Source: Promethearchaeota archaeon | GTDB lineage: Archaea > Asgardarchaeota > Lokiarchaeia > Sigyniarchaeales > SOKP01 | Assembly (NCBI GenBank): GCA_018238625.1 | Contig: JABCSY010000118.1 | Span: 1-11,848, forward strand | DNA: 11,848 bases | Reading direction: 5' to 3' | Shown: positions 4,201-10,713 of the stretch, one piece after another | Position numbering within the stretch: the stretch's first letter is position 1 | Layout: every line of letters starts with the position of its first letter | Translations under genes and position numbers: made by a program | The notes under the pieces: model-generated | Told to the model about the DNA's origin: nothing | The model's database searches: none | Seen by the model: only the letters and a program-made list of their open reading frames with translations

Positions 4201-4572
4201 TTCTAAATTATTAGAACTTTTAAATTCCATTTTTTTGAGTATTTAATATTTAAAATTATTACCTCAAATTTGTATTAATTCAAAGATTTCATAAATTTCA
4301 CAAGATAATCTGAGTAAATTCTCCCAAAATATAAAAAATAAAGATTAATAAAACGTATATAGGCTTTAATACAGAAATTTTTTATTCATTCCTAATTAAA
4401 GAATCTGATATGCCTACTATGTAAGTAATAAAAAATGAAAATTTAACATAATTAGTTAGGATACATATTCGTGAAATGTTTGCGTGTTCTAAATATATTA
4501 TTCTCGTATTATACGGATATATTATTTTGTTTTCGTGCTTAGATATTAAAAACAACATAATTAACAGTTTAT

Positions 4573-4579
4573 AAGGTGG
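4573..4579 (+). promoter_or_regulatory. Shine-Dalgarno-like AAGGTGG for the RHH gene
   Basis: Ends 10 nt before TTG at 4590 and only 1 nt before the in-frame TTG at 4581. It resembles the GAGGTGA site at 2218-2224 and supports a start upstream of the ORF-track ATG at 4609. Confidence 0.6.
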
Positions 4580-4589
4580 TTTGAAAAAG

Positions 4590-4791
4590 TTGAAGTTAAT
4601 AACTTGCCATGTGCCCGAATTTATTTGAAATTTCTTCAAATACTAAAATTCTATGGGAAGCATATCTGGCAGGAATTGAAGATTTAGTAAATCAGAATAT
4701 ATACCCAAACCGATCTGAAGTTATTAGAGTTGCTATTCGAGATCTCTTAAAAACGGAGTTAAACACGGTATTTCAAAGAAAATCAGAATAA
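4590..4791 (+). CDS. Ribbon-helix-helix (CopG/Arc/MetJ, CdrS-like) transcription regulator in two exons: join(4590..4619,4660..4791), 53 aa
   Basis: 4590-4619 encodes MKLITCHVPE (TTG start), a typical alternating RHH beta-ribbon ending in Pro, then hits TGA at 4626-4628. 4660-4791 in another frame encodes AYLAGIEDLVNQNIYPNRSEVIRVAIRDLLKTEL..., the two helices with the YPNRSExIRxAIR motif. Removing 40 nt joins them with normal RHH spacing. Confidence 0.85.
4620..4659 (+). other. Putative 40-nt archaeal BHB (tRNA-splicing-endonuclease type) intron
   Basis: Exon helix AUGUG(4609-13)/CAUAU(4661-65); central 4-bp helix CCCG(4614-17)/UGGG(4654-57); 3-nt bulges AA^U(4618-20) and AA^G(4658-60) on opposite strands; closing pair U4621-A4653; internal hairpin 4622-4629/4635-4642. 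Folded by hand only. Confidence 0.78.
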
Positions 4792-8847: not shown

Positions 8848-10713
8848 TTAATCATAAACCTTTTTGTAAAAACCAACTTGATTTTTAATAGTTGAGACTA
8901 TCAACTCTCTTTCATCGTCTGTTATTTCGTATAATTTAAATATTAAATCGTCAATCTCTCTTGATAAGTGAATGGTTTTATCATCTAATTTATCGTTGTT
9001 ATCGATAAGAGAATGGATTATCGCTTGTACTTTTTCGCTCAAATCTTTTTTATAATTGTGGTTAGCGTTTTTAATCGGTAAGTGTCTAATCATATATTGA
9101 TTTAAATTTATAGTCGTGTTCTTTTGGTTGTTTATCCCATAAAGACAATAGAATTGCATTAACGAAGAATTTAAAATTGCGCATAAGAATTTTAATTCGA
9201 TGTGGTCATCACTTATTATCGAATAAATTGAAGAGGTAAAACAAACATTTTCCCTACTGAAAGTTGCTTGAGGGAAAATATTGTTGTGCTTAATTAAAAG
9301 CTTTGGATTGGTATAAAATTCGAAATTTATTCCTTTTAAGATTTTTGGGTTTGCCATTTCGATGTTGAACGACTTATTCCTTTTAAAATTGTAATAATCA
9401 AAATCTTCCTTTGCTTTAATAAAAAAGCATGAGTTGTTAGTATTCTTTTCCATTAAACTCAAAATTTGCTTTAGACCTTTATCTTCTTCGCCTCGAATCA
9501 TATTTGGGATGTGTTTAATACTAAGATAATTTAAATCCCCTGTAATTTCTATTTTATTAATAAGGTCTATAATTTCCCTATTAGTTTTAATTCTAATTCG
9601 GTTTAAAGGAGTGGTTTTAGAATCGCAATAAGGGCATGTTCTATCAAATGTATAGGCGTAAATCTTTTTTTTGTGTGAACTGAGAGGGCATGTTGAATTA
9701 AAGCATATTCTTAAGGAATCGACATTTTGTTTTTGATATTTAGTAATTTTGCTATTTGGGTATTGATATATACTTAAGTCTTTGAGCGAGTTTAATTTTT
9801 TTTCGTAAAAAAGAATTTGAACTTCGTTTGTTGCATTTTTAAAAATATTAGGACCAACATCGTATATTCTAAGAAGATTCGCAATAGATAACAGACTTTC
9901 TCTAAAATTTACGTAGCCTTGCCTTAATAGAAAGCTTTTTGGTACTAAATATCCTATTATTCCATCCGTCCACGCAAGAGACTTTAGTAAAAATGCGCAG
10001 TAAATGTCGTTGTAAAAAATATTTTCTAATTTTAACTTTTTTTTTTGATTTCCGTCCAAAATATTCCCATAAGGAGGATTTCCAACAATAAGATCAAACT
10101 TAAACTTACTAGATTTTTCTAAACTATCTTCTAACAAAATATTCGACTTTAAAATCGATAAAAGTCTAGAATTATATGGATTTGATTCGTTATAACACCA
10201 CTTAAATAATTTTAAAATGCATAGTTTCCTAGCAGTATCATTAATTTCGGAGCCATAAAGATTTTCTAAAATTTCAAGCTTGATTTTGTTTACGTCAAAT
10301 TCAGAATTAAGTTTTTTAATTATTTTGCAAATTTGATTAGCGGAACTTAGGAGAAAAACACCGGAACCGCAAGCAGGATCGAAGATAGAAGCATTCAATA
10401 GATTCTGTTCGCAATCTTTCCTTACGCTATCCTCTAACTTAAAAATGTCGTTCAAGTTGTTAAATTGAGTATCCTTCATTTTTTTGCTTAAAAAAAGACT
10501 TAACGCTTGAGAAATCATAAAATCGGAAATATTTTTTTGAGTGTAATAAGCACCCTCTTTTTTTCTACTCCGATGCTCTTCTAAAAATTCTGCTTCAATA
10601 TTGCTTAGCTTTTTTAAGCTATCTGAAATTTCTTTATGATTTTGAGTTTCTATAGAATTGAGAATTGCTTTATATATTTCCTCAACTTTTTCGAGTTTTT
10701 CTTTCTCTCTCAT
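8848..10713 (-). CDS. N6-adenine DNA methyltransferase (gamma class, TaqI/Eco57I-M-like) with TaqI_C-like target recognition domain
   Basis: GAYYT (motif X), IFDPACGSGVFL (motif I), LYGSEIN, FDLIVGNPPY (motif IV), and C-terminal FLCAILNSSLMQFY...LPIK...IDDLIFKLYEITDDE. Confidence 0.92.
   Translation of the reverse strand: MREKEKLEKVEEIYKAILNSIETQNHKEISDSLKKLSNIEAEFLEEHRSRKKEGAYYTQKNISDFMISQALSLFLSKKMKDTQFNNLNDIFKLEDSVRKDCEQNLLNASIFDPACGSGVFLLSSANQICKIIKKLNSEFDVNKIKLEILENLYGSEINDTARKLCILKLFKWCYNESNPYNSRLLSILKSNILLEDSLEKSSKFKFDLIVGNPPYGNILDGNQKKKLKLENIFYNDIYCAFLLKSLAWTDGIIGYLVPKSFLLRQGYVNFRESLLSIANLLRIYDVGPNIFKNATNEVQILFYEKKLNSLKDLSIYQYPNSKITKYQKQNVDSLRICFNSTCPLSSHKKKIYAYTFDRTCPYCDSKTTPLNRIRIKTNREIIDLINKIEITGDLNYLSIKHIPNMIRGEEDKGLKQILSLMEKNTNNSCFFIKAKEDFDYYNFKRNKSFNIEMANPKILKGINFEFYTNPKLLIKHNNIFPQATFSRENVCFTSSIYSIISDDHIELKFLCAILNSSLMQFYCLYGINNQKNTTINLNQYMIRHLPIKNANHNYKKDLSEKVQAIIHSLIDNNDKLDDKTIHLSREIDDLIFKLYEITDDERELIVSTIKNQVGFYKKVYD

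Follow-up and report, generated by a model that had tools for sequence, protein, structure and literature searches.

The window analyzed here, which is the whole stretch of 11,848 bases and the entire contig C115 of an archaeal genome assembly (G000; 4.29 Mb, 201 contigs, 32% G+C), contained a ribbon-helix-helix (RHH) gene that was broken at 4619/4620 and 4659/4660 by a 40-nt insert with in-frame stop codons and a shifted frame. The 40 nt at 4620–4659 are likely a bulge-helix-bulge (BHB) intron that is spliced constitutively from the RHH pre-mRNA by the tRNA-splicing enzymes EndA and RtcB; that the RNA is cut and ligated, and that these enzymes do so, is inferred. The related genomes were Promethearchaeota (Loki-type Asgard archaea), in line with an earlier reading made from the letters of this DNA (the sequence-only reading), which had called the host possibly Asgard. 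The evidence suggests that these Loki-type Asgard relatives of eukaryotes probably splice some of their mRNAs with tRNA-splicing enzymes.

The Split RHH Gene

Exon 1 (4590..4619, plus strand) consisted of a TTG start and nine further codons and encoded MKLITCHVPE, the beta-strand of the RHH fold. Exon 2 (4660..4791, plus strand) was read in a different frame; it encoded RHH helices 1 and 2 and a tail (AYLAGIEDL...RKSE) and ended with TAA at 4789–4791. The predicted intron between them (4620..4659, plus strand) was AT-rich, had a length of 3n+1, and contained TGA 4626 and TAA 4644 in the frame of exon 1. The frame change, both stops, the peptide MKLITCHVPE and a Shine-Dalgarno-like site ahead of it had been described in the sequence-only reading, and all were confirmed on the sequence. 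That a genuine RHH gene is interrupted was also upheld, as the insert fell precisely between two codons that adjoin each other in 63 relatives.

In the mechanical list of open reading frames (ORFs), this gene was represented only by a 60-aa ORF from ATG 4609 (4609–4791). The 60-aa ORF matched Pfam PF01402 (RHH_1) with 22.9 bits (cut-off 20.5) at profile positions 8–38 only, and exon 2 alone scored 22.8 bits. Two uninterrupted orthologues scored 34.4 and 33.4 bits and matched positions 2–38; because of this difference, exon 1 was considered to supply the missing RHH beta-strand. The gene was placed in the RHH_1 family, with a score above the cut-off and with the strand and both helices covered in the intact orthologues. 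The 60-aa ORF was ruled out as the true gene, since its frame was lost where the insert was 39, 32, or 30 nt long. The residues of exon 1 were identical across the five genomes of the same genus that carried an insert (carriers), and all DNA differences there were synonymous. Three RHH paralogues of G000, on contigs C84, C181, and C58, read ..I(T/S)(I/V)N(L/V)PE(S/K)Y(L/I).. without interruption.

The predicted spliced product was a stand-alone RHH protein of 53 residues. The best NCBIfam matches of an intact orthologue were CdrS (NF058555, 37.7 bits) and aCcr1 (NF053762, 22.3 bits), followed by NikR N-terminal domains; with cut-offs of 100 bits for CdrS and 60 bits for aCcr1, the gene was assigned to neither family. 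CdrS and aCcr1 are likewise stand-alone RHH proteins of about 53 residues, but the RHH gene of the window adjoined a Na+/Ca2+ exchanger gene and not ftsZ. We take the product to be a putative DNA-binding regulator of the CopG/CdrS-like kind.

Bulge-Helix-Bulge Structure

The central helix (H) of the window was formed by CCCG (4614..4617, plus strand) and UGGG (4654..4657, plus strand), with the pairs C4614-G4657, C4615-G4656, C4616-G4655, and G4617-U4654 (three G-C and one G-U). A 5' bulge AAU (4618..4620, plus strand) and a 3' bulge AAG (4658..4660, plus strand) lay beside it. EndA cuts after the second base of each bulge, so that cuts were predicted after A4619 and A4659. The 5' strand of the exon helix (h) was CUUGCC plus AUGUG (4603..4613, plus strand; 11/11 pairs), and its 3' strand was CAUAU, a 2-nt bulge CU, and GGCAGG (4661..4673, plus strand), with 4609–4613 paired with 4661–4665 and 4603–4608 with 4668–4673. 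The intron contained an 8-bp hairpin, UAUUUGAA-AUUUC-UUCAAAUA (4622..4642, plus strand), whose helix was 91% paired across the carriers. The pairs and bulges proposed earlier were thus present on the window sequence. The BHB had been suspected to be relaxed, and this was also the case: h had 5 + 6 pairs and the intron-side helix (h') had one, which is the relaxed form (hBH) and not the strict hBHBh' form.

Application of the cut rule excised 4620–4659 and restored ..PE|AY.., and the rule landed on PE|AY in 8/8 carriers despite four different insert lengths. The match between the cut rule and the protein frame, already pointed out in the sequence-only reading, was supported by the uninterrupted junction in 63 of the 154 genomes of the order. 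GAA was repeated at both borders, and therefore four cut registers yield one product.

The BHB geometry, with a 3-nt bulge on each of the two strands and at least three of the four central pairs, was found in all eight carriers (4/4 pairs in three of them). The 5' bulges were AAU or AAA, and the 3' bulges were AAG, AGG, or UAG. G119 showed a compensatory change from C-G to U-A in the central helix, and the exon helix pair at alignment columns 18/80 changed from C-G to U-A in two carriers. In the inserts of 30–32 nt, the inner hairpin abutted the 5' bulge and formed h'; directly after the bulge, h' had 9–10 contiguous pairs in G009, G106, G119, and G099, and h had 0–4 contiguous pairs there. 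In the G000 group, 7–10 extra bases after the hairpin reduced h' to 1–2 pairs, and the exon-exon helix was strong. Every carrier had a flanking helix, either h of 4–5 contiguous pairs or h' of 9–10.

The exon helix scores over the carriers were 5, 6, 9, 10, 10, 11, 11, and 11 of 11, and 77 distinct intron-less sequences had a mean of 6.3/11 and a maximum of 9. In the alignment of the eight carriers, 85.9% of the cells were paired, compared with 30–42% when the partners were slid by 1–3 columns. Five pairs changed on both sides in this alignment of related carriers, and the covariation score was reached by 0/500 shuffles. By chance (2,000,000 random fixed site pairs in this genome), the combination of a 4/4 central helix and a flanking helix of 5 bp or more had a frequency of 5e-4. 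The constrained BHB fold was within 1 kcal/mol of the minimum free energy (MFE) in 5/8 carriers. The features of a BHB intron were found together: a central helix with its bulges, one flanking helix, an exact predicted product, maintained pairing, and the enzymes encoded by the host.

Distribution and Selection among Relatives

The genus of G000 comprised 42 genomes, the family 135, and the order 154. An RHH orthologue was held by 34 of the 42 genus genomes; 29 of these orthologues were continuous over ..PE|AY.. or ..PE|QY.., and five were interrupted at the exact site, with inserts of 40 nt (G000 and G049), 39 nt (G013), 32 nt (G007), and 30 nt (G009). A pattern search of the 154 order genomes revealed carriers in a second genus (G099, 32 nt; G106, 30 nt; G119, 30 nt). 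The insert was therefore present at the exact site in 8/154 genomes from two genera. Identical flanks with no gap were found in 63/154 genomes, and no genome held both forms. In the collection of species representatives, the best 80 of the 154 relatives comprised 77 continuous and three interrupted sequences.

The insert lengths across the carriers were of the types 3n, 3n+1, and 3n+2, and the 3n inserts held in-frame stops. Both reading frames were intact in 8/8 carriers. A search of relatives for stop-bearing or frame-shifting inserts at the same position with covarying pairs had been proposed as a check of the intron, and such inserts were found in these eight genomes. The dN/dS values among the carriers ranged from 0.04 to 0.28. 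About 34 synonymous sites, which were saturated, had 26 differences between G000 and G009; about 116 non-synonymous sites had 15 (dN 0.14). The substitution pattern indicated that the RHH gene is functional in the carriers and under purifying selection.

The nearest relative of G009 was G017 (dS 0.20), which had no insert. The gene tree was built from 85 distinct sequences and 159 columns and had weak support; the intron state on it required six changes, at least three of which were forced by well-supported branches. Thus, the insert has apparently undergone several exact losses or several gains.

The Insert in Metagenomic DNA

Four sequencing runs were compared. Metagenome contigs from three of them (X1, X2, and X5, from three studies) crossed 4620–4659 without an indel, X1 being possibly the source of the window; the fourth had no coverage of 4620–4659. 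The joined (insert-free) form was present in none of the run contigs compared. Support for the insertion at the DNA level had been named as a check beforehand, and the contigs of the three runs carried the insert unbroken; an assembly artefact was ruled out by these spanning contigs. One contig of run X2 (depth 8.8), from a co-occurring strain, aligned with the window as far as 4582 and then from 4816 onward, skipping 233 bases; the RHH gene of that strain may be diverged, replaced, or missing.

A blastn-short search of the genome with the intron and 10 nt on each side gave no second copy of the insert, only chance words of 19 nt or shorter, and a repeat or mobile element was ruled out, there being no further genomic copy of the 40 nt. 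A target-site duplication GAA..GAA was rejected as well, as it was not kept in G119 (GAA vs. GUA) or G009 (GAA vs. GAG). No homing-endonuclease gene was located beside the RHH gene. Within the window, Rfam at gathering thresholds gave 0 matches and Aragorn gave 0 tRNA genes.

Splicing Enzymes and tRNA Introns of the Host

G000 encoded two EndA paralogues, 200 and 201 residues long, at C58:7294–7518 (97.7 bits) and C7:25627–25875 (73.8 bits). With the TIGR00324 model, the C58 and C7 proteins scored 117.1 and 88.5 bits. Against fused EndA models, the alignment of the C58 protein fell on the catalytic (second) half and that of the C7 protein on the structural (first) half; the C7 protein also gave weak matches to beta-subunit models. 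The alignments point to C58 as the putative alpha subunit and C7 as the putative beta subunit. By eye, the C58 protein kept Tyr, His, and Lys at the places that we take to be those of the catalytic triad, and the C7 protein was without the His. RtcB was found on C24 with 556.8 bits. An Asgard host equipped with the tRNA-splicing machinery had been envisaged in the sequence-only reading, and EndA alpha, EndA beta, and RtcB were all encoded. Aragorn predicted only 20 tRNA genes in the genome, 11 of which had introns of 5–35 nt.

In the available part of PMC5829648, an (alpha-beta)2 EndA was assigned to Asgard archaea, and its loop was tied to a broad substrate range. According to the accessible text of a preprint (bioRxiv 10.64898/2026.10.13.758758), most tRNA genes are interrupted in some Asgard archaea, and two EndA paralogues were present in 44/60 genomes.

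Similar Inserts in Other Protein Genes

Split genes in G000 were searched by tblastn of 3,524 ORFs against their own genome, a scan that detects only genes with paralogues. Nine loci were obtained: six were neighbouring genes that are fused in a paralogue, one was an in-frame insertion, and two carried short disruptive inserts. The two disrupted genes encoded aIF2-gamma and a BcrAD_BadFG-type ATPase.

In the aIF2-gamma gene of G000 (C165, minus strand, approximately 258–288), GHVDHG and KTTLV were separated by 29 nt. An uninterrupted copy was located on C106 (559 bits with the NCBIfam aIF2-gamma model), and the insert on C165 was letter-identical to that of G050; because of the intact copy on C106, C165 may stem from a co-binned relative. 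The site GHVDHG|KTTL was filled by 29–32 nt in 24 of the 154 order genomes, which belonged to seven genera. The central helix AUGG/CYAU was complete (4/4) in 19 of these 24 and had three of four pairs in the other five, and the bulges were mostly AAU and AAA. In all five carriers tested, the interrupted gene was the only aIF2-gamma match; the match started at the K of KTTLV in four of them and read through one TAG in the fifth. A 400-genome sample of the phylum gave one further carrier, G269, from another family, whose insert was GC-rich and shifted by one base, with the helix CGGC/GCCG (4/4) and bulges AAU and AAA. With an essential single-copy gene likewise broken, it is hard to avoid the conclusion that the inserts are removed from the RNA.

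The ATPase gene (C59, minus strand, approximately 8911–8947) had 35 nt between ..DFQMNDK and CAAGTG... Inserts of 27–35 nt were found in 11/135 family genomes; the helix UGAY/GUCA was complete (4/4) in 11/11, with bulges AAN. The hairpins of these inserts differed in sequence, had the same shape, and co-varied.

The base before nearly every predicted cut in the RHH, aIF2-gamma, and ATPase genes was A, and most bulges were AA|N. The loop AUUUC occurred in several inner hairpins, namely those of the RHH gene in the window, aIF2-gamma on C165, and the ATPase gene on C59. To our knowledge, neither the A before the cut nor the AUUUC loop is a requirement of EndA. These shared features may stem from common descent, from a preference during insertion, or from a preference of the enzyme.

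A census of introns by structure only was dropped as unspecific. It required a complete (4/4) central helix, an A ahead of each cut, and a frame that stays open to the left and right of the insert; stricter filters reduced 205,161 raw candidates to 20,418, and the last filter left 657 loci, among which the known cases were buried in noise.

Proposed Splicing Route and Alternative Explanations

In the proposed route, the RHH pre-mRNA would fold so that exon 1 (4603–4617) is paired both with the last part of the intron (4654–4657) and with exon 2 (4661–4673), leaving two 3-nt bulges on opposite strands of the 4-bp helix. A heteromeric EndA (alpha from C58, beta from C7) would cut after A4619 and A4659, and RtcB (C24) would ligate the exons to ...CCC GAA|GCA UAU..., giving a frame of 53 codons; the intron is probably set free in circular form. 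Most likely, the intron is removed constitutively, in the manner of tRNA introns and the crenarchaeal cbf5 intron, and the RHH intron would be one of a population of 27–40-nt mini-introns in protein genes of this archaeal family. More tentatively, mRNA splicing by the tRNA machinery may be routine in this Loki-type family, the mini-introns having colonised many protein genes with repeated gain and loss. In this reading, the mini-introns would share a common build, with a 4-bp helix, bulges that are mostly AA|N, and an inner hairpin, and the essential aIF2-gamma would be among their hosts.

Several results weigh against the intron reading. At the level of structure, h' in the window was the single pair U4621-A4653, and the central helix had a mismatch in 5/8 carriers (G.A in three, A.A in G106, C.A in G099). 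The strict BHB of the window was 4.0 kcal/mol above the MFE, a rival pairing GAAUU/AAUUC being preferred; in G049 the gap was 3.2 kcal/mol, and in G106 it was 4.2. The z-score of the fold of 4585–4690 was only −1.97, and for aIF2-gamma the BHB fold was within 1 kcal/mol of the MFE in only 8/24 carriers. The eight RHH carriers are related, so that their agreement does not amount to eight independent tests, and, given six state changes on the gene tree, repeated exact loss or unexplained mobility must be assumed. Among the 23 runs listed as holding the stretch, none was on record as RNA.

The intron could act as a switch, the regulator being made only when the tRNA-splicing machinery acts. HAC1/XBP1 is the model for such an event: a short non-spliceosomal intron in a transcription-factor mRNA, with the stress sensor IRE1 as the nuclease and a regulated splicing step. 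The position of the intron, at codon 10 in the gene for a putative transcription factor, the 12-residue peptide that is all the unspliced mRNA would give, and the best NCBIfam matches to the cell-division regulators CdrS and aCcr1 (both far under their cut-offs) would suit such a switch. It is nevertheless improbable: inserts of the same build occur in the housekeeping aIF2-gamma and in the ATPase gene, 63 of the 71 genomes with the junction lack the intron, the sister species G017 lost it or never had it, and no sensor or dedicated nuclease was evident beside the RHH gene. Because the same build recurs in aIF2-gamma and the ATPase gene, tolerated constitutive mini-introns were favoured over a regulatory switch, and the likeness to HAC1/XBP1 drawn in the sequence-only reading was not sustained as far as regulation is concerned. 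A pseudogene, that is, a deleterious insertion of 30–40 nt that is never removed, with no protein made, is less probable still. Three other RHH paralogues in the genome might cover the function, and the assembly is a binned metagenome with an estimated contamination of 7.59%. This explanation conflicts with the dN/dS of 0.04–0.28, the two open exons and the preserved residues of exon 1, with the persistence of the insert and its conserved pairing in eight species of two genera, with the presence of only an interrupted copy of this orthologue in each carrier, and with a like insert in the sole aIF2-gamma gene of 5/5 genomes tested.

Translational hopping, which has a precedent in phage T4 gene 60, was judged the most improbable explanation of all. 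Here, peptidyl-tRNA-Glu would leave GAA 4617–4619 and land on GAA 4657–4659, and GAA did stand exactly at both borders in 6/8 carriers. The take-off codon was followed by a hairpin, and in the five carriers of the same genus a UGA lay three codons beyond it. The codon before exon 2 was GUA in G119 and GAG in G009, however, and the aIF2-gamma and ATPase inserts split codons without matching in-frame take-off and landing codons; hopping would also leave the co-varying CCCG/xGGG helix and the exon-exon helix unexplained. Removal of the insert from the RNA by a route other than EndA and RtcB, such as another nuclease-ligase pair or a hairpin-recognising ribonucleoprotein, is as improbable as the pseudogene. 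The relaxed BHB of the window with its one-pair h', the A before the cut in nearly all carriers of the three genes, which is not a known requirement of EndA, and the AUUUC of several hairpin loops would fit such a route, but the only feature conserved over three unrelated genes was the geometry of an EndA substrate, with a 4-bp helix, bulges of 3 nt on opposite strands, and predicted cuts two bases into each bulge. Group I or II ribozymes were set aside, the inserts being far too short. Constitutive removal by EndA and RtcB thus remained the favoured explanation.

Other Features of the Locus and the Genome

An AT-rich box, TTAGATATTAAAAA (4539..4552, plus strand), is likely a TATA-type element that acts as the promoter of the RHH gene; CTAAATATTAAAAA or TTAGATATTAAAAA boxes were found at an equal upstream distance in most of 34 orthologous loci. 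The Shine-Dalgarno-like AAGGTGG (4573..4579, plus strand) was located 10 nt ahead of the start codon, and the orthologues kept AAGGTGG or AAGGTGA ahead of the start. At the position of TTG 4590 in the window, most orthologues had ATA or ATT; ATC was found in G106, and ATG in two carriers of the second genus. The orthologues with ATA or ATT stood behind the same Shine-Dalgarno-like AAGGTG(G/A), and some of the ATA forms, but not the ATT forms, had an in-frame GTG within this site. Non-canonical initiation is possible in these orthologues, judging from their start codons.

The neighbours of the RHH gene in the window were an ABC ATPase gene and a Na+/Ca2+ exchanger gene. The exchanger gene followed the RHH gene in 21/34 loci of the same genus and in only 18/80 wider loci. 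An 85-aa ORF on the minus strand (4382–4639), which lies antisense over the promoter, exon 1, and some of the intron, was of low complexity and AT-rich and is probably spurious. A 621-aa protein encoded at 8848–10713 on the minus strand contained Eco57I, N6_Mtase, MmeI_Mtase, and TaqI_C domains, and its domain content suggests a type IIG/IIL-like restriction-modification enzyme or methylase.

Elsewhere in G000, MvhD/FlpD-like genes located 3' of HdrA-like genes (C32, approximately 14204–14150, and C119, approximately 2888–2840, both on the minus strand) had an in-frame TGA where their paralogues have Cys (..CWK*GYGAGD.. vs. ..CNWCSYAGAD..). These TGA are likely selenocysteine codons, as their alignment with Cys suggests.

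Comparison with Known Systems

The literature search, which left most subscription journals outside, gave no report of BHB introns in aIF2 or in protein genes of Asgard archaea. If the RHH pre-mRNA is spliced as proposed, interrupted protein genes and enzyme-driven mRNA splicing would be placed on the archaeal side of eukaryogenesis, and the question would arise how coupled transcription and translation avoids unspliced mRNA, since the intron begins 30 nt past the start codon. For annotation, such genes will be called pseudogenes or truncated ORFs, as in the case of the 60-aa ORF, and marker-gene sets that include aIF2-gamma will appear broken in these genomes.

Crenarchaeal cbf5 had been given in the sequence-only reading as the known precedent for an archaeal mRNA intron. 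This precedent was sound, as cbf5 is cited in PMC7714728; the list was incomplete, because a 5'-UTR BHB intron of Haloferax volcanii HVO_1309 has been published in the same paper. In its available text, that 2020 paper names cbf5 as the only other archaeal BHB intron reported outside its own 5'-UTR case (PMC7714728). The HVO_1309 intron was shown by CRISPRi knock-down and in vitro cleavage, according to the same part of the source (PMC7714728).

The crenarchaeal cbf5 intron (Desulfurococcales and Sulfolobales; Watanabe 2002, as cited in PMC7714728; Yokobori 2009, PMC2738675) resembles the RHH intron in being a short BHB-type intron in a coding sequence, in having a host with a two-subunit endonuclease, and in its patchy gain and loss among relatives. 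It differs in that the splicing of cbf5 was experimentally demonstrated, whereas that of the RHH gene is predicted from sequence; moreover, the present host is an Asgard archaeon (Promethearchaeota), the gene is a 53-residue RHH gene with the intron at codon 10, and at least three genes of one organism family carry inserts. The HVO_1309 intron likewise involves an mRNA as a substrate of the tRNA-splicing endonuclease, which is predicted here, but it is located in an untranslated leader, where no reading frame is broken.

The likeness to HAC1/XBP1 is one of analogy only: a short intron lies in a transcription-factor mRNA, and a tRNA ligase joins the exons; at the RHH locus, in contrast, neither a sensor nor any sign of regulation was found. 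The reference list of PMC5829648 includes work on a role of RtcB in HAC1/XBP1-type splicing. Within the host lineage, the RHH intron resembles the tRNA introns of Asgard archaea (bioRxiv 10.64898/2026.10.13.758758): the organisms and the presumed enzymes are shared, the lengths are similar, and gains are repeated. Unlike these, the RHH intron has an mRNA as its host, base-exact removal would be needed to keep the frame, and the unspliced RNA can be translated.

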